From an uncultured Spirochaetaceae bacterium (GTDB lineage Bacteria; Spirochaetota; Spirochaetia; Sphaerochaetales; Sphaerochaetaceae), in the NCBI GenBank assembly GCA_964589355.1, contig CAZPTG010000001.1, forward strand, positions 31 to 64,030: a stretch of DNA of 64,000 bases, read 5' to 3'. How positions within the stretch are numbered: the stretch's first letter is position 1; each line of letters begins with the position of its first letter. The translations under genes and the position numbers were made by a program. Shown here piece by piece: positions 8,999 through 30,038 of this stretch. Below the pieces are notes generated by a model that was not told the origin of the DNA, ran no database searches, and saw only the letters and a program-made list of their open reading frames with translations.

Positions 8999-9985
8999 TT
9001 ACGAATCTTTAAGGTTATAATCTTCAATCTTATTGTACTTTAAGTTATTCTTAAAAACTAAAATACTTGGGTTTCCTTCTCGCACTTTTAAAAAGTGCAT
9101 GTAAATGAGATCTTTGGTAGGCCAACCTTCAGGCCCATACGAGGAGATATTAAGCATTTCTGGCCTATGCAGCACTAAAAGATAATCTGATGCTTGAAAT
9201 ACAGAATCACCACCAAATATATCCCTACGCACCGGAAAATGCATAGTATTAACCATAATCCTTTCTTTAGCTTCTATCTCTCTGTTCATTTGAGACAACT
9301 GAATTATAGTATTTTGGTCATACTTCTTAATTTCCATGAACATATACTGTAATTCAGCTAATGTCTCCCTTTCTTTTTCACCTTGTTTACCTCTTGTTAA
9401 CAAGGTGTGATCGAGTAATATTATGAGCCACCTATCTTTAGCGACTCTATTGGAAAAATCAGTGATAGTCTCTCTAATCTGAGAGACCGTTCCAGGGGTA
9501 TCTACATAATATATAGGTAGATCTTTAATTTTTTTAGCTTCTTCAATAGCTTTGTGGTAGTCAAATTCTGATAGTTTGTGGTTGGACAAGCCGCTATAAA
9601 GCTCTTGTGTTGTTTTATCTAATTTGTATGACAGCTTCCTCCCCACTTGCTTTGAAGCTAACATCTCGAAATTGAAGGAAAGTACAACAAAGTTTTCATT
9701 GGGATTCTGGTCGAATAGGTCAGTTTCTAGACTGTTGGCAAATGCTGATTTACCACTTCCTGATATGCCTGCTATAGTGTAGATACTATTTGGCTCAATA
9801 CCTCCCATACACTGATCATTAAACTTTTTCCACTTAGTCTTTAACGAAGTAATATCCCCTTTCCGTCTTTTATCCATATACTGAATAATTTCCCTGGCGG
9901 GTAGGGCAATTTGTTTATAATGCAACACTCTATTTGAGTTGTTGGCCATACTCAGGTTTTTTATTACTTTTTTCCTGCTGTTCAT
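8999..9985 (-). CDS. DnaB-like replicative helicase (RecA-fold domain)
   Basis: 328 aa. Walker A is IAGISGSGKSAFANS and Walker B-like is WLIILLDHTLL, in a replication context. The start may be Met13 at 9949. Confidence 0.7.
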   Translation of the reverse strand: MNSRKKVIKNLSMANNSNRVLHYKQIALPAREIIQYMDKRRKGDITSLKTKWKKFNDQCMGGIEPNSIYTIAGISGSGKSAFANSLETDLFDQNPNENFVVLSFNFEMLASKQVGRKLSYKLDKTTQELYSGLSNHKLSEFDYHKAIEEAKKIKDLPIYYVDTPGTVSQIRETITDFSNRVAKDRWLIILLDHTLLTRGKQGEKERETLAELQYMFMEIKKYDQNTIIQLSQMNREIEAKERIMVNTMHFPVRRDIFGGDSVFQASDYLLVLHRPEMLNISSYGPEGWPTKDLIYMHFLKVREGNPSILVFKNNLKYNKIEDYNLKDS

Positions 9986-10495: not shown

Positions 10496-10882
10496 CTACT
10501 TGTAGTGTTTAACACAAAAGACCTTACCTTCTCTTTCAAAATGTGAAAGCCTTTTATGCTTAGTACCTCTCTTTCTCACATATTCCTCTATAAATCGAGG
10601 AAGTGCATTTCTTTTAACTTTCTCTTGTTTAAGCAAGAGATTGTCATAGGAGCTGTTATAAGGTGTATGAATAGTAAGTAAGATTCTTCGTCTAAACAGT
10701 TCATCACAAGTCTTTAAATGTCTTGTAGAAGATAGTCTTTCAGGTGTTATCTTATCTACAGCATTGTTCAATGACTCATAGTCTTTATTATATTCCTTAG
10801 GTAGATTATCCCTTACTATATCCAATAACAATCTAGTTGCCCCTATTTCTGATACTGGTTCTGTTAGAGTCTGATTGTTCAT
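10496..10882 (-). CDS. hypothetical protein (128 aa)
   Basis: ORF on the coding strand, tightly packed. Confidence 0.55.
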   Translation of the reverse strand: MNNQTLTEPVSEIGATRLLLDIVRDNLPKEYNKDYESLNNAVDKITPERLSSTRHLKTCDELFRRRILLTIHTPYNSSYDNLLLKQEKVKRNALPRFIEEYVRKRGTKHKRLSHFEREGKVFCVKHYK

Positions 10883-13945: not shown

Positions 13946-14128
13946 TTAGGTATAATCATTAAGATGACTAAGAGGAATCTTTACTTCCTCTTCTCTAGTC
14001 GTTATTCCTTCACCTCTACATGTAGGACAAGTATTTTTATGCCAACTATACCTTTTGTTGGTAATTTTTCCTTCACCCCCACATGTCTTACATTTGTTTG
14101 AAACTTTCCTATATGCTTTTATATACAT
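13946..14128 (-). CDS. DnaJ-type zinc-finger mini-protein (60 aa)
   Basis: Two CxxCxGxG repeats, CKTCGGEG and CPTCRGEG, as in the DnaJ cysteine-rich domain. Confidence 0.6.
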   Translation of the reverse strand: MYIKAYRKVSNKCKTCGGEGKITNKRYSWHKNTCPTCRGEGITTREEEVKIPLSHLNDYT

Positions 14129-15333
14129 TACGTATTTTGTTTCAATAAGTTTTTAGAGAATTGTAAAATACTTTTTGGGATTTTGTTAGATACTTCATTT
14201 AAATAGGACTTTGTATCTAAATAATCCCTAGTTACAGAAGTTAACATTTCATATAAGTCTGAATATGTAGTAATACTCTTACCTGTATCTAACTTAGAAA
14301 ATAACGTTGTTGTATCAGTATAATCTCCCATCAAGGAATTAATTCTCAAATAATTAATAATAAAAAGACTTAAATCAAATGCCTGTTCTTTATCTTCAAT
14401 ACTTTCATATATTGTCCTTAAGTCTTCTTTAAAAGTATCTGTTAAATTAATTGTAAGGTTGTAGTCATCTTTATTATCCTCTGACCCTTCTTCAGATGTT
14501 AATAGTACCTTTGATATGTTCTCTTGTTTATCAATCTTATTTATAGATTTATCAATTTCTTCTATATTTACTTTGTTTGCTTCTATACATTGTTCCCTAA
14601 GGAATTCCTCAGATAATGAGTACAAATCTAATATATGTTTAATATTTTTAGGGTCGTACATATCAGCTCTCTTAGGTACTTTATCACGTGCAATGTTCTT
14701 TAATATATCCTTGAACTTAGATCTGTACTTTTCTCCAACTTTCCCAACTGTTCTTTTTTCTTCAATTTTATTAGTATTATGTAGACAAGCTAAATATACT
14801 TCTATTTTCTTAAAAGTATTTATAATCTTATCAATACTGGATGTATCTAGTGAATCTTCTTTACCTACTAAGTTATGGATAACAACTGCAGGGCTTCTAT
14901 GATCATAGCAAGGAATAAGGATATTGTTGTTTAGCATATAGGGTGTTAATTCTCCTAAAAAATAGCTAAAAAAGGAAGAAGTTAAACTAGTGTCTTTATC
15001 ACCTTTGTCCATAATTATATTAGCTATTTGAGAAGCTTTATTCTCAGCTTCCTTAATTACTGTACCATCTGTACCTTCAAGCATCTTAACTAGTTTGATA
15101 GGATTTCTACTTAAAGTAGAGCCTATATCTACTCCTTCTAATAGAGGTTTTCCTGCAGCTAAATTCAATAATCCATAGTATTCTTTGCCTGCATCTATGA
15201 CACTTAGAGGTCTATTTACAACACTGTTAATCATGGAGATTATAGTATATTCTATCATTCTCCTATCATTAAACTGTATTTCTTTCCCAGTTCTATCGTG
15301 TAGTATTACCAACTTACTATTTTGTATGTTCAT
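14128..15333 (-). CDS. hypothetical protein (401 aa)
   Basis: Long ORF on the coding strand, start/stop-coupled to its neighbours. Confidence 0.65.
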   Translation of the reverse strand: MNIQNSKLVILHDRTGKEIQFNDRRMIEYTIISMINSVVNRPLSVIDAGKEYYGLLNLAAGKPLLEGVDIGSTLSRNPIKLVKMLEGTDGTVIKEAENKASQIANIIMDKGDKDTSLTSSFFSYFLGELTPYMLNNNILIPCYDHRSPAVVIHNLVGKEDSLDTSSIDKIINTFKKIEVYLACLHNTNKIEEKRTVGKVGEKYRSKFKDILKNIARDKVPKRADMYDPKNIKHILDLYSLSEEFLREQCIEANKVNIEEIDKSINKIDKQENISKVLLTSEEGSEDNKDDYNLTINLTDTFKEDLRTIYESIEDKEQAFDLSLFIINYLRINSLMGDYTDTTTLFSKLDTGKSITTYSDLYEMLTSVTRDYLDTKSYLNEVSNKIPKSILQFSKNLLKQNT

Positions 15334-18964: not shown

Positions 18965-19465
18965 TTAAACAGCTTGATCATCAGTGTAGGTTTCCCCATC
19001 ACCTAATTTTTCAAGCCAATCTTCGAGAAATTGAGATACTTTATTTCCAGCATCTATCTGAACTTTGACCATTTTAACTTTTTCTTCAAGGTCAGATAAC
19101 TCCTTTTTCTTTTCAGATACTGCATACCTGTTTTGTTCCAGGGACTTCTCATTGAGATCCCACGCATCTTCTATTGCGGAATCTTTGTCTGTGTAAATCG
19201 ATTCTTTGTTGATATCGAAAGACATTTCAAATATCTTATGGTCTCCTTCTATCTCTCCTTTAGACATAATAGACTCGACGATATCTTTTCGATTTACTAC
19301 AACTTTGTTGCCGTCTAAGACAACAGATACTACTCTTATACCCTTTGGATCATACCAGGTAGTCCTTATCAACTTGTTGTCATTGTCTACAACCTCTTCT
19401 TGTAGAAAATATACTATTTCTCCAAGCGATAAAACACTACTGGGTTTGCTAGCTCCTCTTTTCAT
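18965..19465 (-). CDS. hypothetical protein (166 aa)
   Basis: ORF on the coding strand. Confidence 0.55.
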   Translation of the reverse strand: MKRGASKPSSVLSLGEIVYFLQEEVVDNDNKLIRTTWYDPKGIRVVSVVLDGNKVVVNRKDIVESIMSKGEIEGDHKIFEMSFDINKESIYTDKDSAIEDAWDLNEKSLEQNRYAVSEKKKELSDLEEKVKMVKVQIDAGNKVSQFLEDWLEKLGDGETYTDDQAV

Positions 19466-19776
19466 TTTGCATAATTTTGGTTAGTAATCTTGTTTAAAAA
19501 CTTTAAAAGTTTCTTGTCTTGAATAACGGGCCCTAATCTGATGTTATTATCTTCATCTTTTATGTAGACTATTCTCCATTTAGTCTGCTTATGACCCGCT
19601 GTCTCTTTCCAAGCTGAGATCCCCCTGTCTTTTTGAAAGATCTTTTCTATTGGTATTTTGATCCCTAGTACTTTTTTAGCTTTGTACAGAATATTGCGCT
19701 GTATCAAATGTACTAAGGTACCTTCAGCTTTTATGCTTATTATAGGTATTAGATATTTATACTTTTTTACCTTCAT
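19462..19776 (-). CDS. hypothetical protein (104 aa)
   Basis: ORF on the coding strand, first gene after the terminator at 19790-19830. Confidence 0.55.
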   Translation of the reverse strand: MKVKKYKYLIPIISIKAEGTLVHLIQRNILYKAKKVLGIKIPIEKIFQKDRGISAWKETAGHKQTKWRIVYIKDEDNNIRLGPVIQDKKLLKFLNKITNQNYAK

Positions 19777-19789
19777 TTTTTAATAGTTT

Positions 19790-19830
19790 AAAAGGACTGG
19801 GGAGCTGGGACTTTCTTAAGCCCCAGTCCT
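19790..19830 (-). terminator. intrinsic terminator closing the 1.3-kb ORF-free island
   Basis: AGGACTGGGG-18 nt-CCCCAGTCCT, a 10-bp stem, followed on the minus strand by TTTTAAAC. Confidence 0.6.
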
Positions 19831-21088
19831 ATTTCCTTACTTAATATTAAGCTATGATTCAATGAAGTCATCCACCCAAGCTTTTAAAATGCACTTGGTA
19901 CCTCATGAACCACATCCACTCACAACCTCCTTAGCTTAATACTCTTATAGTCACTATTAGTCAGTCTCTTGCTGTGGTTAGGCAAGAAATACACTGACAT
20001 TTATTTGGGTATATATTATACAACAGCCTAACGGCTCCGTTGTAAACCCTTGTTTACTATTTGAATTTTGTAGAACTGTTAGAGGTCTGTTCTACTCTAG
20101 GGACTTAACTTTGTTCTCCACACTTACGGTTACCTGCTAAGTTTAAAGACCCTCTGTCCTACAGAGTATCGCATCATAAGTAGCTCCAAGCAAATATAAC
20201 TGGAAATGGCTGCATCAGTTATAAAGCGCACTACCATGATACTGGGCGGCATTACCGCCTCATTGATGTATGTATCCTCCACATTACTCGATGGTTGAAA
20301 CTGATAGGGATTGCGACCTATCGCAGGCTATTTATCAAACTTATTCCTAAGCCCCAACTTGACGATTCATGCTTCAGATCTTGGCTAGGGCGTATAACAT
20401 GTAGCTTCTTACCATACAAACGGTGAAGCACACGTATCCATCCCTCCTCCTCTTACCCCAGCCGAAATCACAGACGACAGTTCATATTTCGCTACTGCGG
20501 CTTGAACTACACCACTTTACTGGGGGATAAATTATCTACTCTGTACTCGGTACTCAAGGTCTATACAACGACTCTAAGGAATTTGGACCCCCCGTTACTA
20601 ACTTAATTCAAAGTTAAGTGTTCACTTGGCCTATTTACTAGGTAGCATCATCGTAGTCTTCTGGTGTTTCCAGCCCCACTGTATACAGTATATACAGCCC
20701 CGTATTCAGTTACTTCTTAGTTCAACCTTTTCGTAAAGGGAAGTGCGAGCATGCATAAGCTCTTAAGGGTAATACCCACACACTTAAGAGTACGGATTTG
20801 ACCATGGGTTGCGTTAGACCTATTTACCTTAATGTATCCATCGGGTCTGCCAGTTCCTCAGAGTGCGCTTAAATCAATAATTGGAACCCATCTTCCTAGG
20901 ATACTTCATAAGGAGAGTAGTTTTGTAGATATTGAGTAGCTAATAGGTAGTAGGCATTGTCCTTGGTATTCCCAACATTGCCGAATCCAAAGGCGGTAGG
21001 GTGAAGGTTCTCTCAAGAACTGCTACAAAAATTGAAGCCGAAATAGGCTCGCACCTAAATCGACTCAAACCACAAAAAATATTATGTG
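19831..21088 (-). ncRNA. large ORF-free, GC-enriched segment; candidate structured RNA of unknown class (strand inferred)
   Basis: No ORF of 60 aa or more on either strand across 1.26 kb. One sampled 60-mer is about 43% GC, against roughly one-third in the coding flanks. Many local hairpins, and a terminator on the minus strand at its end. Confidence 0.45.
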
Positions 21089-21613
21089 CTACCTTGGCCA
21101 GGTTTCAGACATTATAGCCAAGGCTTTTATTTTATCGAAGGTGAACCCGGTATAGCTGGGACCTCTTGCCATGATCTGTTTAGCTCTTACATTGTTAGCT
21201 GGTTCTATTTTACCACTATCAAGTAGTAGTAAATGGGGTATAAGTTCACCTTGTTCAGTTACTTCCGTCAGTTCTACATACCCAGTTTCAATATCTTTAT
21301 TGTGTAAGGGCACTAGCTCTGATGGTTTTTCTTGAAATGTTTTATTGGTTAGCTTAATCATTCTTACCATCAAGGATCTACTTCTCCTTGTTAAGCTTTT
21401 TCTTCTAGCATCTATCTCGCTTATGAGTAAACTCATATTGTTGATAGTACTAGAAGCTCTTGTAAACTTGGAGTTTTGACAGGTTGAACGTATTAAATAA
21501 ATGTCGTTAAATAACCGTAACCTTAAGCTCCTGAGCTCGTTGATACGCACGCTTACGAGTATTAACTCTATTGCGTCGTGTGAAGTGTTTCTTTCTTTTT
21601 TACTTTTTGACAT
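21089..21613 (-). CDS. hypothetical protein (174 aa)
   Basis: ORF on the coding strand. Confidence 0.55.
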   Translation of the reverse strand: MSKSKKERNTSHDAIELILVSVRINELRSLRLRLFNDIYLIRSTCQNSKFTRASSTINNMSLLISEIDARRKSLTRRSRSLMVRMIKLTNKTFQEKPSELVPLHNKDIETGYVELTEVTEQGELIPHLLLLDSGKIEPANNVRAKQIMARGPSYTGFTFDKIKALAIMSETWPR

Positions 21614-21628
21614 AATATGTTACTTAGG

Positions 21629-22687
21629 TTAAACTTTATTTCTTTGATATTTGCCTGATACAGGGTTGTTATTGAAATACCACTTCATCTCCCTTTCTTT
21701 GTTGTGAATGATATCGTAGATAGGTCTCCACTTCTCTACATCACTTAAGAAGCATACAAACCTATTGCTATGCCATAGCTCATTAGGCTTATTCTTATGT
21801 CTTTTGGCATAGCCCTCTTCTACATCTACACCATTACAATTATGTACCGTGTATCTAGCATAAACATAGGTATTTACAGGTATCTTTTCTGTGCCCCATT
21901 TATTAGCTTTTTCAACTAAAGGAGCTATTTCCTGATCGCTTAGTTGTATAGCATTGAGTAATTCGGGCTTAGGCAATTTACCATGCTTTTTAGTGTACTT
22001 TTTCCTGAATTCTCTTCTCTTTTTATTAAGCAGCTGAGTTTTTAGTTCAGCTACCCTTCTGGCTGTTTTAGCTTCTTTTAAAGAACTTGAGGGTTCTAAT
22101 ATATTGAATTGCTCTTTAACTAAGTTGATAAACCTGTAAGCTCTTTCTGCAGGATATTCAACATCCCTAAAATGGAACTTAGTTAATAATGTAACCAATT
22201 CGCCCCTTAGACCTTTTTCAAGTAGTTCTATAATTTCAGAACGTAAGCTAGTTACAAATGGAGGTTCACTTTCACGTATTTGCCTTTTTTTGCTAAGTAC
22301 AGCTGCTTCTTCTTCCCGTAATTTCATACCTACTTTTTTGCTAATGAATTCAGCTTCATCATTAACTATTTCAGCATTAGGGATTTCACTTTTACCAGCT
22401 TCTTTAGCTTTACTTACCTCACTTTTAATATTAGCTGGATTAAGAGCTACAAAATTCTTTTTAATCCATTCAGGACCAAATCCTAGGGTATTGCTTAACC
22501 CCTCTTGAATAAGCAATTCAGCGTAGCTTTCAGCTTCAGCAGCTTTCAGTTTGTACATATGCATGGCACTCATATCACTTTGGTTGTTGCCATGATTCCA
22601 ATACCTGTCTTCAAAACGGACAGCCATTTTGTAAAAGTATTCGGCTGCATCAAATAATTCCGATGCAGAAGCATTGTATTTGTTCAT
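21629..22687 (-). CDS. hypothetical protein (352 aa)
   Basis: Long ORF on the coding strand. Confidence 0.65.
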   Translation of the reverse strand: MNKYNASASELFDAAEYFYKMAVRFEDRYWNHGNNQSDMSAMHMYKLKAAEAESYAELLIQEGLSNTLGFGPEWIKKNFVALNPANIKSEVSKAKEAGKSEIPNAEIVNDEAEFISKKVGMKLREEEAAVLSKKRQIRESEPPFVTSLRSEIIELLEKGLRGELVTLLTKFHFRDVEYPAERAYRFINLVKEQFNILEPSSSLKEAKTARRVAELKTQLLNKKRREFRKKYTKKHGKLPKPELLNAIQLSDQEIAPLVEKANKWGTEKIPVNTYVYARYTVHNCNGVDVEEGYAKRHKNKPNELWHSNRFVCFLSDVEKWRPIYDIIHNKEREMKWYFNNNPVSGKYQRNKV

Positions 22688-22708
22688 TTTAATCGGTTTT
22701 TTCAGGGT

Positions 22709-23257
22709 TTATAGAACTTTCTTAATCACCATATCGATTTTATTTCGATCTTCAGGTGAATTTGAAAAGACAAACTTGACAATTCTGTCTCTACCCCTGT
22801 CGTCTTTTCTTGCTTCACTGATTCTTTCCCTGAATTCCTTCATACCAAACTTACTAAGCGTATTAATGATATTATACGCCTCTTCTGGACTTAACTTATC
22901 ATCTTCTTCAAACAAGTGCTTATGAGAAGCTTTCGTTATAGTTGCAACTTCGTTGATACACTTATCTCTGAAAAGTCTACCTTTACGACTATCTTTGGAT
23001 TCAGTCAAAGAAGCAGTTAGTGTATCAAATAAGTATTTCCTTAAGTACTTTTTGTCTCCTTCAAAGCTGGATGATGCTTTCTTCTTTTCCATATTCTCAA
23101 TTTCTCCGATTAAGGCGGAAAGTGTTGAAAGCTGTTCTCGCAGGGAATTTGCTTCCCTTTTGTTGCCTCTTTTTTTAGCCCTAAAGAAGTCTTTCCGTAA
23201 CTCCAAATATTGATCTTTAAGATCTTGGAGTAGTGTCTTCCTAAATAAGTTATCCAT
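22709..23257 (-). CDS. hypothetical protein (182 aa)
   Basis: ORF on the coding strand. Basic and helical. Confidence 0.6.
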   Translation of the reverse strand: MDNLFRKTLLQDLKDQYLELRKDFFRAKKRGNKREANSLREQLSTLSALIGEIENMEKKKASSSFEGDKKYLRKYLFDTLTASLTESKDSRKGRLFRDKCINEVATITKASHKHLFEEDDKLSPEEAYNIINTLSKFGMKEFRERISEARKDDRGRDRIVKFVFSNSPEDRNKIDMVIKKVL

Positions 23258-23282
23258 GTTTGGTTAGTTTTAATGGTTAAAG

Positions 23283-23308
23283 AAAAAGGGGGACTATTAA
23301 TGTCCCCC
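23283..23308 (-). terminator. intrinsic terminator closing the intron-containing ORF-free region
   Basis: The minus strand reads GGGGGAC-ATTAATA-GTCCCCC followed by TTTTTCT. Confidence 0.75.
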
Positions 23309-23782
23309 AAGACTCACCGATTAAGCAGCTGCTCTAAGCAATTGCATCATTTCAGATTCGCCATTTAAAAATTACTTACACCTTTCGTGCTAACTGGGTA
23401 CCATAACGTCAAAACCAATTAGGCCCCATATTTTTAACGTTGAAAACAAAGGGCAGGTTACACCCCAGGGGCTACCTGAGTTACCAACCTCCGTGAAATT
23501 ATAATATTTTCTCCTCACCTGCCCTACTGCTATCATTGGCAACGGGCTATTTTACTAGCCTGTATCCTATTTCCGATAATCGGATGTTTTTAGTATTAGC
23601 TTCTACCTTAAGAACATTTCTTAGATACTTTTGTATCTCCTTCTTACGTCTCTTTTTCTCCTTCCGTGGTAGTTTTAATGCTTTCATAATACAGTGTTTA
23701 GATAAGTGGAGCCTTCGGGACAATAGTTAAAACATCTGGAACAGTAACATTTCAAACCTGCGTCCGTATATTCAATAAAAAT
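23309..23782 (-). ncRNA. ORF-free, GC-enriched structured segment between the LAGLIDADG gene and the terminator
   Basis: No credible ORF. Has a long-range 8-bp pairing, GGGCAGGT...ACCTGCCC, and several hairpins. Could be the distal part of the group I intron, or a 3' exon RNA. Confidence 0.35.
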
Positions 23783-24178
23783 ATGGGTTGGGAATATATT
23801 ACAGGTTTCTTTGATGCTGACGGCACGATAACATTTTTACGTTTACATAAGAATTGCGAAAGATCACCTGTTATTTCTTTTAGTAATAACGAATATGACC
23901 TACTTGTGGAAATAGAAAAATTTATTAAACTTGAAACAGGTCATAATGGATTCATTTGTACTAAAAAATCAGGTGATTTTACTAATTATGAGCTGAGGTA
24001 TACTTATTTACCTAAATGTATAAACGTACTATCTTACATAAATTCCAGACATCCCAAGAAGCGTAGACGTATAGATATGATACTTAACGAATTGAAGAGT
24101 ATAACACCTCGTAATGGTAAATATACAAAAGAAACCTTATCAAAACGTCAAGAATTTACATCTCGCTTCTTCTCCTAA
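23783..24178 (+). CDS. LAGLIDADG homing endonuclease (single-motif type)
   Basis: 131 aa. The N-terminal ITGFFDADGTITF is a LAGLIDADG motif. It is the only plus-strand gene in the leftward module, and its stop lies inside the P9 hairpin of the antisense group I core. Confidence 0.8.
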   Translation: MGWEYITGFFDADGTITFLRLHKNCERSPVISFSNNEYDLLVEIEKFIKLETGHNGFICTKKSGDFTNYELRYTYLPKCINVLSYINSRHPKKRRRIDMILNELKSITPRNGKYTKETLSKRQEFTSRFFS

Positions 24179-24395
24179 TTTCTCAGGAGTATCGGACTAT
24201 CTCTTCACTTTTAAGTGCTGGGCGCTCTAGCCTGTATTCAGGTAGTCTCTGCACCTTCCCTCTTAAGGGCTTGGCTCAGGGTTGCCTTATCATTGTGACT
24301 TAGGTTTCCCTGAATTCACCCAGTTTAACTTCGACCTTTTGATCGAACCCGAGTCCGCTAAAGCCCTAGCTAGCAGCGTAAGTAAATCGTTTGTT
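24172..24395 (-). ncRNA. group I intron catalytic core (IC3-like)
   Basis: The minus strand carries P = AATTCAGGGAAAC, Q = AACCCTGAGC (P4 CAGGG/CCCTG), R = GGTGCAGAGACTAC and S = AAGAGATAGTCC (P7 GACTA/TAGTC). It also has P3 CTGGGTG/CGCCCAG, P8 CACTT-AA-AAGTG, P2 TTCGATC-AAAA-GGTCGAA and P9 CTCCT-GAGAAATT-AGGAG, all in canonical order. Confidence 0.8.
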
Positions 24396-24402
24396 AGTTA
24401 AG

Positions 24403-24846
24403 TTAGGTTATAAGGTTACTATATCCCTTAGTCTTTAACATTTCCCATTCTCTATAACATAGTCCTCTTTTGTGTGGATCCTTTATTTTACTTACCGGCA
24501 TTAAGTATCCCTCATGGACTGGTAGTACTATTTTACGACCGTAAAAGAATAAAGAATCTAAGCTATCTTCTTTATATGCTTCAGATAGCTCTAATACACT
24601 CTTAAGAAAATGTGTCTTGTTATAGAGTATGACTGCTCTTGGTACTTCTATTAAATGGTGTTCTTCACCAAATAAGCTACCAAAAGCATTGCTAACATTA
24701 GAGAAATGTAGCATCTTTTCTTTGTAGCTACACGCTACCTTACTTATTGAAGGTACATATTCTCCAATAAAGTCGGGCATGTCAATAATTACTAAACTGC
24801 CCTTACTTATTTTGTCTTTGCTTTGCTTTGAGTTAGATTTCCACAT
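24403..24846 (-). CDS. hypothetical protein (147 aa); possible 5' exon of the intron-bearing gene
   Basis: ORF on the coding strand whose stop lies a few nt upstream of the intron core. Confidence 0.5.
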   Translation of the reverse strand: MWKSNSKQSKDKISKGSLVIIDMPDFIGEYVPSISKVACSYKEKMLHFSNVSNAFGSLFGEEHHLIEVPRAVILYNKTHFLKSVLELSEAYKEDSLDSLFFYGRKIVLPVHEGYLMPVSKIKDPHKRGLCYREWEMLKTKGYSNLIT

Positions 24847-24849
24847 GTC

Positions 24850-25107
24850 TTAGCTCCTTTTAACGCTTAATAATCTTACTGAGTTAGATTTCCATCGGAT
24901 TTTCTTAAAAAATACTTCAGGCAGTTTCTTTTCGATCTCTTTGAATAGCTCGCTACTTATATTGAGATCCAAAGGCTCTTTCTTATTACTACTGTCGGCG
25001 TCTTTTCCCATGCTATCTTTTGAGGATAAGACCCTAAATGTCTTTTTCTTCCCATTTAACAGTAAGACTAAGATGTCTCCCCTGTTAAGGGCATAACGTT
25101 TTTCCAT
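24850..25107 (-). CDS. hypothetical protein (85 aa)
   Basis: ORF on the coding strand. Confidence 0.5.
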   Translation of the reverse strand: MEKRYALNRGDILVLLLNGKKKTFRVLSSKDSMGKDADSSNKKEPLDLNISSELFKEIEKKLPEVFFKKIRWKSNSVRLLSVKRS

Positions 25108-25278: not shown

Positions 25279-25313
25279 AATATTTAATTTTTGTGGTTTG
25301 TAAATAAAAATAG

Positions 25314-25506
25314 TAGCCATACTGGGACTCGAACCCAGATCTCCCTATAATTTATTAGGGGCTCTTCCGCTACTCGGACTCTGCGTGAGGTGGCCTAGAA
25401 TGGATTGGATTTTAAGTCCAAATAAGTTCCATTCTCCTCTGCATATCCTTGGGGGTTACAGCCGATTCCTAGGAACTTGAGTGTAACACTTTTGAGCTAT
25501 ATGGCT
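25314..25506 (-). tRNA. 193-nt tRNA-like gene with a ~115-nt insertion in the D-loop region
   Basis: The 5' part is AGCCATA-TA-GCTC-A. The 3' part is GTAGCGGAA-GAGC-CCCTA-ATAAATTA-TAGGG-AGAT-CTGGG-TTCGAGT-CCCAG-TATGGCT-A. The acceptor is 7/7 and the T arm is canonical, with an 8-nt anticodon-type loop. The insert contains AGAATGGA...TTGGA-CTTAAAA-TCCAA...TCCATTCT. Confidence 0.45.
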
Positions 25507-25511
25507 AACAG

Positions 25512-25631
25512 CAGTCCGTGGAGGAGTCGAACCTCCGTTTCCGTGGGGCAAACCATGGTTGATACTCTAACATAGCTAGTGCATGTATAAAGTATTAACA
25601 GCTCGGCGTCCTACCACTAGACGAACGGACC
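25512..25631 (-). tRNA. 120-nt tRNA-like gene (Asn-type anticodon loop CUGUUAA) with a ~46-nt insertion after the loop
   Basis: The 5' part is GGTCCGT-TC-GTCT-AGTGGTA-GGAC-G-CCGAG-CTGTTAA. After the insert it continues (C)CACGG-AAAC-GGAGG-TTCGACT-CCTCC-ACGGACT-G. The anticodon stem pairs only 4/5. Confidence 0.45.
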
Positions 25632-25751
25632 ATAAGTTAGGGAGACCTGAAGTACGACTGCTGTATGGGCTGGTTACCACCGTGTCGTCGCCGATAGCCC
25701 TGATTGGGCTCCAAGATCTCTCTATATTTTTAACAATTTCATTTTTGTGGT

Positions 25752-25880
25752 TTATCTACAGAAAATCGCTAGTGCTATTAGTGCTATCCACATAATTGCT
25801 CCTAGTATGCATCCGTAGATATCTTGTCCATCATTAGGATCAAATTCTCTATCTTCGTCTCTTGATTGTTCCCAATCCAT
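25752..25880 (-). CDS. small membrane protein (42 aa)
   Basis: Own translation gives MDWEQSRDEDREFDPNDGQDIYGCILGAIMWIALIALAIFCR. Preceded by the AAACCACAAAA box at 8 nt. Below the ORF-track size cut-off. Confidence 0.45.
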   Translation of the reverse strand: MDWEQSRDEDREFDPNDGQDIYGCILGAIMWIALIALAIFCR

Positions 25881-25898
25881 ATTTTTAATTTTGTGGTT

Positions 25899-26519
25899 TT
25901 ATTTAATAGCTATCAGTACTCTGGCTGATTGCCTATCTTCCTCTTTGTTAGATGTATTAAACTTGTGTTCATCTATTAACTCTTCTATCTCTGTTGAGCC
26001 CCCTAGATGTACAAATACTTGTCCCTTGCGCATCTTCCTGAATAACTCATCAAATGTTTCTCTTGGTTCACCTGTGATATTAAAAGCATAAATAATGTCA
26101 GGATCTAACCTGAGTATTAAGTCTACTCTTTCCTGTACATATCCATTGTATATTTCTAGATGAGGCCTCATTATTGTAGCTATCTTACAAAGATTCCAAT
26201 CAGCTTCTATTCCATAAGTTTTCTTAAATATTATGCTGAATAAGTCTACAAGTAATCCTGTTCCACATCCTAAGTCAATTATGCTTTTACTTAATAAATC
26301 ACTTAAATTCCAACCAACTGTTAGTTGTAACTCTTTGTATATGTCAAATAGATCAAACCACCTTGTAGACATATACCCTGTAACATACCTGGCTCTACTT
26401 ACAAGCGCCATAGGTCCGTCACCTATCGGCTGTCTTAAGCTCATTTCGTACTGACAGTTTTCCTTATATATGAGAAGCTGTCTAAGTATGTCTATTTCTT
26501 TGTTAAAGTTTTTTTTCAT
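25899..26519 (-). CDS. class I SAM-dependent methyltransferase
   Basis: 206 aa. Motif I is IIDLGCGTGLLVDL. Confidence 0.75.
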   Translation of the reverse strand: MKKNFNKEIDILRQLLIYKENCQYEMSLRQPIGDGPMALVSRARYVTGYMSTRWFDLFDIYKELQLTVGWNLSDLLSKSIIDLGCGTGLLVDLFSIIFKKTYGIEADWNLCKIATIMRPHLEIYNGYVQERVDLILRLDPDIIYAFNITGEPRETFDELFRKMRKGQVFVHLGGSTEIEELIDEHKFNTSNKEEDRQSARVLIAIK

Positions 26520-26552
26520 CTTACTTAATTTTTGTGGTTTATTGTATAAGAT

Positions 26553-26610
26553 AAACAGGTAGATCCCACCCTCAATGAGCGCGTATCTGTCAGAATAGAT
26601 CTACCTGTTT
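26553..26610. repeat. 13-bp inverted repeat (aaacaggtagatc / gatctacctgttt) with 32-nt spacer
   Basis: Read directly at 26553-26565 and 26598-26610. Confidence 0.9.
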
Positions 26611-26648
26611 AGTTTTAATAATTTAACTGTTTAGTTTTAATAATTTAA
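26605..26648. repeat. perfect 22-bp tandem direct repeat x2
   Basis: ctgtttagttttaataatttaa occurs twice in tandem, followed by an A/T-only stretch. Confidence 0.9.
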
Positions 26649-26724
26649 TCTCTAAAATAATAATAAATAAATTTTAGTTGTTGTTAATTAAGGTGGCTTA
26701 AGTACTCTCATAATTACGGTATTT

Positions 26725-26741
26725 AAACTATTTGTTATAAT
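26725..26741 (+). promoter_or_regulatory. 17-nt box AAACTATTTGTTATAAT (TGnTATAAT-like), identical to the box before the late operon
   Basis: Exact 17/17 identity with 31156-31172. Contains an extended -10-like TGTTATAAT. Confidence 0.45.
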
Positions 26742-26952
26742 CTGGTGGACAAAAGTCCTCAAAAAAATACCTGTTATTGGAAAACAGTAGGGAAAGAGCT
26801 GTATCAGCTGTACTTCAGCATTCATACCCTTTCTTTGGGGTGACAACTATTTATGGTGTTGTCTGTATAGTTTTATTTAAAGACCTACTGTTTGTGCAGC
26901 AACCATCTGGCTTAATCCTACATGGGTTACTACAGTTCTGTTGTTTGTGGTT

Positions 26953-27135
26953 CTACTGCGTATGTTGCTCTCGTTTTAGCCTGCTAATCCGTTGTTGCAG
27001 TTCAACTATACGCTCTTCATCCCTTGGTACTCGCTTATCAATTACTTTCTTTCCACGAGTTCGCATATTTTTGGACTTAGGCCTATTCAGCTGACCTGAA
27101 AGCCTAGTTTTAGCTCTATCTAACCTGGTTTTCAT
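26953..27135 (-). CDS. basic hypothetical protein (60 aa)
   Basis: ORF on the coding strand. Arg/Lys-rich. Confidence 0.45.
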   Translation of the reverse strand: MKTRLDRAKTRLSGQLNRPKSKNMRTRGKKVIDKRVPRDEERIVELQQRISRLKREQHTQ

Positions 27136-27445
27136 ATTTAGCCTCCCTTTTTTTAGTTTTTACATACTTTCTGTACTTTTTGTCAATAGAACACCAGAAT
27201 AGTTCCCTTTCGATTGATGCTGCCCATGGAAATGCTTGTGATATAGCATTTAGATCCCCGTTTATATTTAATGGGCTGTTAGTACTCGTAAATGGGTCAC
27301 TCTTTGATGCTTTTAACTTAGATGTTTTAGAAGCAAAGAAGTATGTTAGATCAATAAACCTATTTAATAAACTCTCTTTCTTTAAAAACGAGACTAGTAG
27401 CTTATTATCCAAGGTCTTGCCGGATATTTGCCACCTACTTATCAT
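27116..27445 (-). CDS. hypothetical protein (109 aa from Met38)
   Basis: The start was placed at 27445 because it forms an ATGA overlap with the stop of the upstream ORF (27442). Confidence 0.5.
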   Translation of the reverse strand: MISRWQISGKTLDNKLLVSFLKKESLLNRFIDLTYFFASKTSKLKASKSDPFTSTNSPLNINGDLNAISQAFPWAASIERELFWCSIDKKYRKYVKTKKREAKYENQVR

Positions 27446-27846
27446 AATCTCCACCACTTCCTGGTTTGCAATGGGATCATATAACCATCTTCCTTGATAG
27501 CAAATTGGTATTCCCAACCTTTTAGCATCACAAAGAAATCTGTGATCTTGTGCCAATTAGTTGACTTAGGCCATTTTGTACCTGTTTGCTTAACCTTGTA
27601 ATGAGTAGCTTTAAGCAGCCTATAATAATTAGGTTGGCAATAGCCTATTACACCAATAGGAAGACGTTTACCTACTTCTACATAGGCTGTCTTATAATCC
27701 TTTGTAGGTATTAACCCAGTAATTACTACAGCATGTCCTGCTAATTCTTCTGTAGGGTTGTCCTTGAGTACGTCAGGTAGTAATAATACTCGATCCCCAA
27801 TCTGTACTTTGTTGGAATTTAACCATACTAATGCTTTTGATGTCAT
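27442..27846 (-). CDS. hypothetical protein (134 aa)
   Basis: ORF on the coding strand, with the box 9 nt upstream. Confidence 0.6.
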   Translation of the reverse strand: MTSKALVWLNSNKVQIGDRVLLLPDVLKDNPTEELAGHAVVITGLIPTKDYKTAYVEVGKRLPIGVIGYCQPNYYRLLKATHYKVKQTGTKWPKSTNWHKITDFFVMLKGWEYQFAIKEDGYMIPLQTRKWWRL

Positions 27847-27870
27847 ACATCTATATTTTGTGGTTAATAA

Positions 27871-28113
27871 TCAGCTCCCCATACCTAACTGGGGAGCTTC
27901 ACTTTTTGCAATCTCTTCATCAATTTCCACTACTTTCTTGTCAATGTAGCTGATGAGGGAGAATCTGTATTCTTCTGCAAACAATGGGTTGTAGTTTTTG
28001 TTGTTTAACAACCTATTATTCCTAAATACTATTCTACCTGTACTGATTGCTTCCCTATCCCTGAGAAGCTTGGCTTTACGATTATTAAGTCTTTCTAATC
28101 CTTTTTCAATCAC
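27871..28113 (-). CDS. hypothetical protein (80 aa), GTG start
   Basis: ORF on the coding strand with no ATG available. Two boxes lie upstream. Confidence 0.45.
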   Translation of the reverse strand: MIEKGLERLNNRKAKLLRDREAISTGRIVFRNNRLLNNKNYNPLFAEEYRFSLISYIDKKVVEIDEEIAKSEAPQLGMGS

Positions 28114-28168
28114 TTTATTTTGTGGTTTAATTTAACTTATTTATAACTTTGTAGCTTTGTGGTTTAGT

Positions 28169-28690
28169 TTAACAGATGTGTGGTTTTCCACTACTTTGCC
28201 CTACTATGGCAACTCGCCCCTTTTTCTTAGCAAGTCTGTAGAATTCTTTCTCTTCTTCAGTAGCAGGTCTATACTCTGCTTCAAACCAAGCAGGCTTGTT
28301 TAGGTGTCTTAAATTTCTAATTGGATCACCAGTAAAGGCTTCACATAATATTAAATCACTGTACCATTTTGCTTCCAATATTTTAGTAACTGTACCTTCA
28401 ATATTACCACTGTGGTAATGTGTAATTACAACTATTTCCCCCCTTTTAGGTTTATAGTTCCAGGTTAACATTTTATTGTTGACAGACCACAAGGTGGGAT
28501 AAGCATGTGGATTTACATTGTCTATCATAGCAATACCTTGGTTTGCAACTTCTTCATAGAAGTCTTTTGTCACTGGTGTACCGAATAGGTAATCCATCTC
28601 ACCTTCACTGTTAAAACGTGCTTTAGTTCTAAAATTAGAACCAAACTCTTTCATGAGTTCTTCCTTAGTTTTAAATCTGTAAATCTTCAT
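28169..28690 (-). CDS. hypothetical protein (173 aa)
   Basis: ORF on the coding strand, with a variant box upstream. Confidence 0.6.
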   Translation of the reverse strand: MKIYRFKTKEELMKEFGSNFRTKARFNSEGEMDYLFGTPVTKDFYEEVANQGIAMIDNVNPHAYPTLWSVNNKMLTWNYKPKRGEIVVITHYHSGNIEGTVTKILEAKWYSDLILCEAFTGDPIRNLRHLNKPAWFEAEYRPATEEEKEFYRLAKKKGRVAIVGQSSGKPHIC

Positions 28691-28718
28691 AATCTTATAG
28701 TTTTGTAGTTAATAGTAT

Positions 28719-28925
28719 TTAATGATTTAAAAGATAGTTAATACACTTGGGAATCTTCTTATCTTCATAGAATGGGTCAAATTTTGTAGCTGTAATTTCC
28801 ATTGCTTTGTGATAGAAGTATGTACTTAACATTAGGTAGAATGCTTGACCCTTCCTTAAATTAGGATTTTGTTCTAATAAATCCTCACGTTTCTTTATTA
28901 CTAATGTTATTTGCTCTCTAGTCAT
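28719..28925 (-). CDS. hypothetical protein (68 aa)
   Basis: ORF on the coding strand. Confidence 0.5.
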   Translation of the reverse strand: MTREQITLVIKKREDLLEQNPNLRKGQAFYLMLSTYFYHKAMEITATKFDPFYEDKKIPKCINYLLNH

Positions 28926-28938
28926 ACTATTGATTTGA

Positions 28939-29199
28939 TTATATAATAAATTCTTTAATTAATAAGTATATTATATATAATAGTAAACATACTGTTACAA
29001 ATGCTACTATAATGATTACCCCTAAGTACATAGTTTCAAGGACTGAACTGTCGCATGCTAACAAATCTATTTCATCTACATGTGTAAAGTATAGGATTAG
29101 TTTCCCTATACCCCACCCACATACAGCTGTGATTGCTAATTCAGCTGCTATTATTATAGGTACTAACAATACCCTAAATACTATTTTTATTATTTTCAT
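28939..29199 (-). CDS. small membrane protein (86 aa, 3 predicted TM segments)
   Basis: The hydrophobic segments are VLLVPIIIAAELAITAVCGW and LGVIIIVAFVTVCLLLYIIYLLI. The box lies 2 nt upstream. Confidence 0.55.
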   Translation of the reverse strand: MKIIKIVFRVLLVPIIIAAELAITAVCGWGIGKLILYFTHVDEIDLLACDSSVLETMYLGVIIIVAFVTVCLLLYIIYLLIKEFII

Positions 29200-29210
29200 A
29201 GTTTTGTGGT

Positions 29211-29594
29211 TTAAAGTTCAGTGTCAACTAATCTTTCAAATACCATTTCCCTGTTCTCTTCATCCAGCCTATCAAATTCATGTAAAGGTGTGTGGAGTCT
29301 TTTTACACTAAACTCTACCGAATTTAAGACATTAATAACAGTAACTTGTTTTATATCACTAGGATGCTCTATAAGTTGTTCCCTTGCTTGTGTATCAAAC
29401 CAGGTTAGTTCGTTGTAGTTAATATATCCTATCCTAAACTTTATCCCATCTTTAATGACAAATACGCAAAGGTACCTACTGGGATAGACTGAGCTTGTTA
29501 ATTCAGGGTCATTATGGCTGTGAGATTCAATACAATAATTAATATCATCAATGTTAATTATTGTACCTCTTCCAATTAATTCAATTTTATTCAT
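29211..29594 (-). CDS. hypothetical protein (127 aa)
   Basis: ORF on the coding strand, with the box 9 nt upstream. Confidence 0.6.
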   Translation of the reverse strand: MNKIELIGRGTIINIDDINYCIESHSHNDPELTSSVYPSRYLCVFVIKDGIKFRIGYINYNELTWFDTQAREQLIEHPSDIKQVTVINVLNSVEFSVKRLHTPLHEFDRLDEENREMVFERLVDTEL

Positions 29595-30038
29595 AGTTGT
29601 ATATTTTTGTGGTTTATAGCTATTAGTATTATATAGGTTGGGTTATTGATTATGTGAAATTAGGGCTGATTGAGGCGTGAGTTTAGACGACCTATAACAC
29701 TCTCCCTCATTTGCCCATAAATGCCCTTTTTAAGCGATTTAAAGCCTTCATAGGGTAGTTTAGGTACTACAGGTCTATTTAGACTATAAACAGCTTATAT
29801 GGCTTTATTTGGGGATATGCCAACATACTTCAGACAGTCCAAATTTGGACTAAACTTTCAGATCTGATAGTACTCAATTTAGTTATCAGTACTTACTATT
29901 TATCCTTATTGCCTTTTATAATTACTATTATAAGCATGGCAAATAATGTCATAATTATAACAGCTGTTTCTAATTCCATGATTAATTAATTTAGTTATTG
30001 GTACTTATTTTGTAGGAATACCATGATTTAGCTTAGTG

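Follow-up and report, generated by a model that had tools for sequence, protein, structure and literature searches.

A conserved, strand-specific box before the small genes of a crAss-like phage, and its conserved inverted copy

Here we describe an 11-nt word, hereafter the box (AAACCACAAAA), that recurs before small genes on the minus strand of a 64,000-nt stretch of phage DNA (hereafter the window; positions 31 to 64,030 of contig CAZPTG010000001.1, assembly GCA_964589355.1). The box is real, strongly non-random and evolutionarily conserved. Judging from sequence comparison, it may well act at the level of the mRNA, as a translation-initiation tag of the first small-gene cluster, and we tentatively suggest that it is masked by an antisense RNA carrying its conserved complement. 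We also infer that the box-bearing genes are early genes. What is new here is the class-specific half of the box and the conserved complement; the A-tract rule that covers the other half is known.

The 9-mer AACCACAAA occurs 12 times in the window, against 0.60 copies expected and a maximum of 4 in shuffled sequence. Likewise, AAACCACAAAA with at most one mismatch is found 11 times against 2.45 expected, a count reached by 0/100 shuffles. Ten of the AACCACAAA copies lie on the coding (minus) strand within 25,289-29,615, and the cluster copies share a single orientation (10/10). Exact copies of AAACCACAAAA on this strand are located at 25289, 25743, 25889, 26530, 28118, 29202 and 29605, one-mismatch copies at 27856 (TAACCACAAAA) and 28155 (AAACCACAAAG), and degenerate copies at 26943 (GAACCACAAAC) and 28701 (TAACTACAAAA). 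The sole exact copy on the plus strand is at 21067-21077. A first-pass annotation of this DNA had listed these copies, all of which exist at positions within ±1 nt of those given, and had regarded the box as confined to the small-gene cluster. A scan allowing two mismatches agrees with such confinement, there being no excess outside the cluster (44 vs 34), save that one extra copy of the 9-mer sits inside a gene at 9575, probably by chance. The copies are thus near-perfect or absent, which rules out a generic A/C-rich leader. A recent duplication of the boxes is ruled out by their flanks, which are unrelated between copies past ~3 nt from the box.

The annotation had further proposed a genome-wide check on the complete phage and its relatives. 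The window covers contig C1 (64,060 bp) of a metagenome-assembled genome (MAG) almost completely. A second contig, C2 (30,787 bp, 35% GC), has a 55-nt overlap with the start of C1 and carries a single open frame of 7,432 codons (C2:5446-27741) that contains DFDID, which we take to be the motif of crAss virion RNA polymerases. The overlap and this frame indicate that C1 and C2 together make up a phage of ~95 kb, with its virion RNA polymerase fused into a giant protein. Usable relatives came from exact-protein look-ups and are called here phage B (L055, a 50.8-kb ENA contig, to which we add L040), B' (L062/L063), C (L066), D (L067) and E (L068). The box word is the commonest non-AT 11-mer and 12-mer of C1 and C2 combined, is not found in C2, the remainder of the phage genome, and recurs in phages B and B'. 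The box copies in the window and the elements that accompany them are as follows.

29617-29635, minus strand: 19-mer TATATAATACTAATAGCTA with a TATAAT-like core, a candidate promoter of the whole box cluster.
29605-29615, minus strand: box 1 (AAACCACAAAA), with a 10-nt spacer to the ATG of a 127-aa open reading frame (ORF) at 29211-29594; it abuts the conserved 19-mer.
29202-29212, minus strand: box 2, overlapping the upstream TAA stop, with a 2-nt spacer to the ATG of 28939-29199.
28701-28711, minus strand: degenerate box TAACTACAAAA, with a 10-nt spacer to the ATG of 28169-28690.
28155-28165, minus strand: imperfect box AAACCACAAAG, 37 nt upstream of the box at 28118, with no ORF of its own.
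28118-28128, minus strand: box, with a 4-nt spacer to the GTG start of 27871-28113.
27873-27898, minus strand: GC-rich hairpin with a 9-bp stem, just upstream of the box at 27856.
27856-27866, minus strand: box TAACCACAAAA, preceded by this hairpin, with a 9-nt spacer to the ATG of 27442-27846.
26943-26953, minus strand: degenerate box GAACCACAAAC, right after a TAG stop and heading a ~400-nt non-coding gap (26520-26952); possibly a relic.
26530-26540, minus strand: box, with a 10-nt spacer to the ATG of a methyltransferase-like ORF at 25899-26519; the hairpin upstream has a 13-bp stem and a T-rich tail.
25889-25899, minus strand: box, right after a TAA stop, with an 8-nt spacer to the ATG of a 42-aa ORF at 25752-25880.
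25743-25753, minus strand: box, overlapping a TAA stop, with a 0-nt spacer to a 6-codon ORF that is followed by a tRNA-like cluster.
25289-25299, minus strand: box behind the tRNA-like cluster; a 55-aa membrane-type ORF starts (ATG, 25277) after a 10-nt spacer.
21067-21078, minus strand: anti-box TTTTTGTGGTTT, which complements the box exactly and has one extra A, 11 nt past the stop of 21089-21613.
21033-21066, minus strand: hairpin directly after the anti-box, followed in the window by CAATTTTTGT.

The gaps between box and start codon in the window are 10, 2, 10, 4, 9, 10, 8, 0 and 10 nt. Six of these nine lie at 8-10 nt, as had been noted before, and the 6-codon ORF and tRNA-like cluster previously reported behind one copy (25742, here 25743) are also present, the former at 0 nt. 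A gap of 10 nt to an ATG is found for 4/9 window copies and for 7/8 copies in phages B and B'. This spacer places the AAAA of the box at -14..-11 from the start codon. Moreover, the spacers themselves are TAAGAYT-like, and ATTAAATATT, ATTAAGTAAG, ATATACAACT, CTATAAGATT and TCTTAAGATT all have A-6 and A-3. Among 64 non-box genes of the window, the frequency of A is 0.52-0.69 at -14..-10 and 0.59 at -3. The phage has genes that lack Shine-Dalgarno (SD) sequences, which fits a Bacteroidota host, and in the bacteroidete F. johnsoniae A is over-represented at -14..-11, where mutation cut GFP by 30-90%, while A-3 and A-6 also have positive effects on translation (Baez et al. 2019, PMC6847099). F. 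johnsoniae ignores SD sequences, as do other Bacteroidota (PMC6847099), and SD-less initiation in this phylum involves sequestration of the anti-SD sequence (PMC7797042). The box-bearing genes share with such translation-initiation regions (TIRs) the lack of an SD, the A residues at -14..-11, -6 and -3 and an unstructured, G-poor leader, and the whole phage follows the same profile. Thus half of the box is explained by a known Bacteroidota translation rule, and the strong 10-nt mode is explained by this TIR rule and not by promoter function.

The other half of the box is a different matter. In Bacteroidota the TIR is a loose preference in composition, whereas in this phage the A-tract is joined to an AACCAC that does not vary, is restricted to one class of genes and is conserved between phages. 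AACCAC is confined to the box gene class, and non-box genes show no register-specific similarity to it; it is a discrete class mark, not the far end of some general trend. Some intergenic spaces measure only 11-18 nt, and the stop codon of the preceding gene falls within the box or adjoins it. Local folds leave the box unpaired. No box is found before those cluster genes (27116, 26953, 24850 and 24403) that overlap the gene ahead of them or directly adjoin it.

The early arm of phage B is syntenic with the window. Here, four small genes are preceded by TAACCACAAAA and one more by AAACCACAAAT, at spacers of 9-10 nt throughout, and there are two further, weaker variants. Phage B' adds two more copies with 10-nt spacers. 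Window orthologues in B and B' are only 29-36% identical (29-33% for those flanking the cluster), and most box-bearing genes are unrelated between the window and these phages. Selection has therefore kept the word while the surrounding genes were replaced. Only one cluster protein, encoded by 28169-28690, has an orthologue in phage B (36% identity). Both genes are preceded by a box, that of phage B being perfect and that of the window degenerate, at identical spacing. A structure model of this sole conserved cluster protein was unusable (pLDDT 43.6). A further correspondence is a syntenic slot (window 25289; phage B, L055 14232) consisting of a tRNA-like gene, a box and a small membrane-type protein. 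The likeness of the two membrane-type proteins was read from their sequences, BLAST detecting no similarity between them, and in phage B no box precedes the tRNA-like gene. The tRNA-like gene of the window (25512-25631, minus strand) has a ~50-nt insert and matches the Rfam tRNA family at 44.6 bits over 120 nt; ARAGORN misses it. Its counterpart in phage B (L055 ~14060-14225) falls below the Rfam gathering threshold and is likewise undetected by ARAGORN.

The left arm of this phage is nearly unique in public data. We found no near-identical phage records, and contigs sharing identical proteins were 100% identical to the window and hence offered no variation. IMG/VR scans with the methyltransferase-like ORF and with left-arm proteins of 204, 352 and 342 aa found nothing, and a portal scan returned only short or distant contigs, none of them with a box. 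A homologue search with the methyltransferase-like ORF matched only itself, and one with the 352-aa operon protein gave a single match at 34%. L041, a distant relative of 94.7 kb, lacks a rigid word and shows only loose AAACTAYA leaders. The closest named relatives are Suoliviridae such as cr118_1 (63% identity in the major capsid protein), whose genome contains no box. It does encode a real ECF sigma factor (gp43), which the phage of the window is without. L040 was recovered by a metagenome scan with a 188-aa protein and ends exactly at the first box.

A second conserved element lies beyond the cluster. The plus-strand copy at 21067-21078 had already been placed by the first-pass annotation at the edge of a 1.3-kb RNA island, which we confirm, although its conservation was missed. 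Read on the minus strand, this anti-box (TTTTTGTGGTTT) is invariant in five phages: the window, L055 (B), L062/L063 (B'), L066 (C) and L067 (D). It follows a 21089-family gene's stop codon by 11 nt in the window and by 4-8 nt in B, B', C and D, and was not found in E (L068). Identity of the 21089-family protein to that of the window is 52% in C (L066), 44% in D (L067) and 35% in E (L068). In an alignment of the five phages the anti-box is the only invariant block of at least 6 bases, and the flanks differ. By inspection, a stem directly follows it, with a sequence that varies by phage (GGTCAAT/ATTGACC, GGCCAGCA/TGCTGGCC, GGCTA/TAGCC), and a U-rich tract lies behind this stem in 3/5 phages. Given that both position and sequence are conserved, we regard the anti-box as part of the same system. 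A host-type -7 promoter was considered as the cause of this conservation and rejected: TA drifts and GTGGTT is invariant, the reverse of a -7 element. Searches beyond the five phages added nothing, neither a BLAST comparison of the RNA island with four long relatives from IMG/VR, nor a profile search of genome contigs with the 21089 family, nor an IMG/VR pattern scan with the anti-box, in which the matches listed were chance matches only.

No terminator precedes the anti-box, and transcripts of the 22709-21089 operon should therefore at the least carry it at their 3′ end. As RNA, its 12-mer (UUUUUGUGGUUU) is a perfect complement of the box over 11-12 continuous nucleotides. The duplexes predicted for five box TIRs range from -14.3 to -16.8 kcal/mol, compared with -12.3 kcal/mol for a degenerate copy and a median of -8.2 kcal/mol for 80 TIRs. 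From this complementarity we tentatively infer that box and anti-box pair.

The cluster appears to be headed by a further conserved word. The 19-mer TATATAATACTAATAGCTA (29617-29635, minus strand) is unique in the window and is found, identical, in phage B (L040 21-39; L055 ~10858-10876), where the proteins neighbouring it are only 29% identical between the two phages. It is likely a promoter or control site for the box cluster. Moreover, the box is not the only rigid leader of these phages. A second word, AAAACTAACTAACT, abuts the ATG directly, contains TAA in all three frames and again has AAAA at -14..-11, so that rigid leader words in this clade sit within TIRs. It precedes genes after the box cluster in B, B' and C (L055 15404, 16462, 19578 and 20402; L063 2282, 3166, 6287, 7115 and 7961; L066 1512 and 2084), and in the window the leader of 22709-23257 is AAAACTAACCAAAC. 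A complement of AAAACTAACTAACT was sought and not found. A GC-rich hairpin with a T-tract (23288-23308, minus strand) lies 20-30 nt before the ATG of the 22709 family in four phages (window, L055, L066 and L068), and leaves no room for a promoter between itself and the start codon.

We therefore hypothesise, at the strength given at the outset, that each half of the box serves initiation in its own way. The AAAA of the 3′ half, at -14..-11, would be the A-tract that aids the start of translation by SD-blind Bacteroidota ribosomes, probably via protein S1, and the spacers would contribute A at -6 and -3. The 5′ half, AACCAC (-20..-15), would be a class-specific tag for a trans-acting factor to read. 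As this factor, an RNA is the most concrete candidate, with UUUUUGUGGUUU at the 3′ end of the next operon, where the 12-mer would be held single-stranded beside the hairpin, at the 5′ margin of the large non-coding RNA. Pairing (predicted at -14 to -17 kcal/mol) would cover -21..-10 of each box-bearing message, such that early translation would be shut off once the downstream operon or RNA accumulates. The cluster itself would be transcribed as an operon from the 19-mer. It is conceivable, if speculative, that this lineage marks an immediate-early translation class by an address fused to the A-tract and silences it through one conserved 12-nt seed. Such masking would resemble the action of sRNAs derived from 3′ untranslated regions, or of lambda oop, in that a single-stranded 12-nt seed 5′ of a hairpin is complementary to several TIRs. 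It would differ in that all targets are early genes of the phage itself sharing one word, and in that the RNA is a predicted one. To our knowledge the host clade is without Hfq.

Several observations weigh against a translational tag masked in this manner. Rigid 11-mers repeated before small early phage genes are classically promoters. No real ORF comes after the copies at 28155, 26943 and 25743, two of the three being imperfect, and that at 25743 precedes tRNA-like genes, which suits a promoter or processing site better. Spacers of 0, 2 and 4 nt displace the A-tract from its register. The boxes at 27856 and 26530, and those at L055 11684 and 13005 (seen by eye in the flanks), follow hairpins with T-rich tails, a layout that looks like a terminator-promoter unit. 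As for masking, box and anti-box have both been seen in three phages (that of the window, B and B'), while C, D and E are represented without cluster sequence. Wherever both are seen they are unchanged, and hence there is no compensatory change that would prove pairing. Nor are we aware of any phage whose RNA masks a leader word common to its early genes.

A phage-specific early promoter is a serious, if less likely, alternative. The box would then perhaps span approximately -6 to +6 and be read by the virion (DFDID) polymerase or by a host polymerase that the phage has modified. Every small gene would form a transcription unit by itself, with an A-rich leader of 6-16 nt, and the A-tract would keep its role in translation. 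The promoter and TIR readings are compatible, since transcripts initiated within the box would retain the A-tract. Promoters of 9-11 nt do occur for non-canonical phage and organellar polymerases. In keeping with a promoter, the word is rigid, strand-specific, confined to one gene class and conserved in relatives, two copies stand in tandem (28155/28118), and others precede the tRNA-like cluster (25743) and a non-coding stretch (26943). Moreover, the hairpins with T-rich tails immediately upstream of some boxes resemble the promoter early stem loop (PeSL) cassettes of T4, where a short word that survives gene swaps, as the box does, stands before small exchangeable early ORFs, sometimes after a stem-loop. 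The boxes differ from PeSLs in lacking sigma-70-like hexamers and in standing 0-10 nt from the ATG with a 10-nt mode. Hairpins precede only 2-3/11 window boxes, no hexamer pair is associated with boxes, and a promoter scan did not rise above shuffled sequence (46 vs 40.9). A motif for crAss-like early transcription is still lacking. Phage phi14:2 has a virion RNA polymerase, early leftward genes and abundant early intergenic long non-coding RNAs, and no common motif upstream of its early transcripts (Drobysheva et al., bioRxiv 10.1101/2020.03.07.982082); here, by contrast, a rigid motif is present, in TIR register. This register is itself awkward for a promoter. Wherever a copy is linked to a gene, the start codon is 0-10 nt away, hence leaders could not exceed ~16 nt, whereas leaders in F. 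johnsoniae average 33 nt and 87% are longer than 10 nt (PMC6847099). The TIR rule already accounts for the 10-nt mode, nothing is conserved upstream of the box, and the promoter-like 19-mer already stands directly upstream of the first box. The second leader class has the same order of hairpin, leader and ATG, too closely packed for a promoter to fit. As a promoter, the conserved inverted copy would direct antisense transcription into a gene and would have no conserved ORF behind it. Finally, only 1/11 copies precedes RNA genes, and the tRNA-like gene of phage B is without one. Of the options that had been put forward in the first-pass annotation, a translational element is accordingly the best supported and a promoter remains its rival, while nothing points specifically to an RNA-processing site.

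The remaining explanations are, even when pooled, unlikely. An RNA operator for a protein, either a repressor site of the RegA type or an endoribonuclease site of the RegB type, is improbable, though location only in early TIRs, single-stranded context and sites beside stop codons would all suit it. The logic of T4 RegA and RegB matches such placement in early TIRs. The likeness to the T4 RegA operators and RegB GGAG sites lies in a class-wide sequence in early TIRs and post-transcriptional shut-off of a class; the sequence is unrelated, no homologue was found, and the candidate effector here is a complementary RNA, not a protein. Pfam searches revealed no RegA/RegB-like or other RNA-binding domain in ten cluster proteins and no RNA-binding domain in ten downstream proteins of the leftward arm, and NCBIfam gave no match for six window proteins (18965-24846) and three of L055, none of them from the cluster; as regards RegA/RegB, these negatives speak only to detectable homology. 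Moreover, a protein that binds single-stranded RNA leaves the conserved reverse-complement copy unexplained. A duplex-DNA operator would deal with the latter, in that one regulator binding an asymmetric 12-bp site either way accounts for the boxes and the inverted copy alike, the orientation of the boxes following from the need for a G-poor, A-rich leader. However, 10/10 cluster copies have one orientation and a preferred 10-nt register, neither of which a roadblock requires, and no candidate DNA-binding protein was identified; a homologue of the cr118_1 sigma factor gp43 was not found in C1, C2, L055 or L062. We regard such an operator as quite improbable. Least probable of all, to the point of being remote, are host-type -7 promoters (TAnnTTTG) on the opposite strand or pairing of the box with 16S rRNA. 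TAnnTTTG is found on the plus strand in 5/11 boxes, and the anti-box reads TAttTTTG in 3/5 phages. However, T-12/A-11 of this element are nearly invariant and the bases past TTTG are free, whereas here TA drifts and GTGGTT is invariant. The sigma-A promoter of Bacteroidota combines TTTG at -33 with TAHHTTTG at -7, 4-5 nt from the transcription start, but on the gene-sense strand the boxes are without TTTG. An antisense promoter had been rejected in the first-pass annotation, and rightly so, as only these 5/11 copies fit and the invariant GTGGTT is not what such an element keeps constant. As for rRNA, UAAACCACA is complementary to UGUGGUUUA within the conserved segment GCAUGUGGUUUAAUUCG, verified in E. 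coli rrs. By our own estimate a 9-nt match within 1.5 kb arises by chance in ~2% of cases, and the segment lies in what we take to be helix 30, in the head, where it is base-paired and distant from the side on which the mRNA exits. The 9-nt complement is probably fortuitous.

The Crassvirales are among the most abundant gut and environmental viruses, and the box bears on how they time their gene expression, as well as on how messages are selected in SD-blind Bacteroidota. It is a compact, conserved and easily mutated element with a defined register and a candidate trans-acting partner. Should it prove to be a TIR tag, it would offer a natural high-activity leader for Bacteroidota expression tools and be the first case of class-specific translational addressing in these phages. 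Were it a promoter instead, it might supply the early promoter that is missing for the crAss-like virion polymerase. Masking, if true, would mean that the phage encodes an antisense master switch for genes of its own that have a leader word in common.

With regard to the wider genome, the window contains a crAss-like head module (TerL with an insert, portal and major capsid protein, by matches to PHROG families), and genes run leftward from ~30.7 kb and rightward beyond that point. The phage contigs have 35% GC against 27% for the rest of the MAG bin, and SD-like words precede 9% of long ORFs in the phage against 57% in the rest of the MAG. Therefore, the phage is probably mis-binned and its host is probably not this MAG. 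No related phage was present in twenty genomes akin to the MAG. The earlier statement that no gene in the window has an SD is nearly right; the exceptions are rare SD-like words in an otherwise SD-less phage, GGGAGG (27136-27160, minus strand) before 26953-27135 and AAGGAG (24847-24865, minus strand) before 24403-24846.

Two minor observations may be added. The near-palindromic words ATTAGCTAAA and TTTAGCTAAT have 8 and 6 plus-strand occurrences in C1 and C2, and ATTAGCTAAAAA has 4; these may be another regulatory word. Lastly, independent assemblies of the window phage and of phage B break repeatedly within the early cluster. L045 and L046 begin at 28775 and 28752 and end at 20535, and L062 begins at a box, as L040 ends at one. 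Such recurrent breaks suggest strain-level hypervariability or are repeat-induced.

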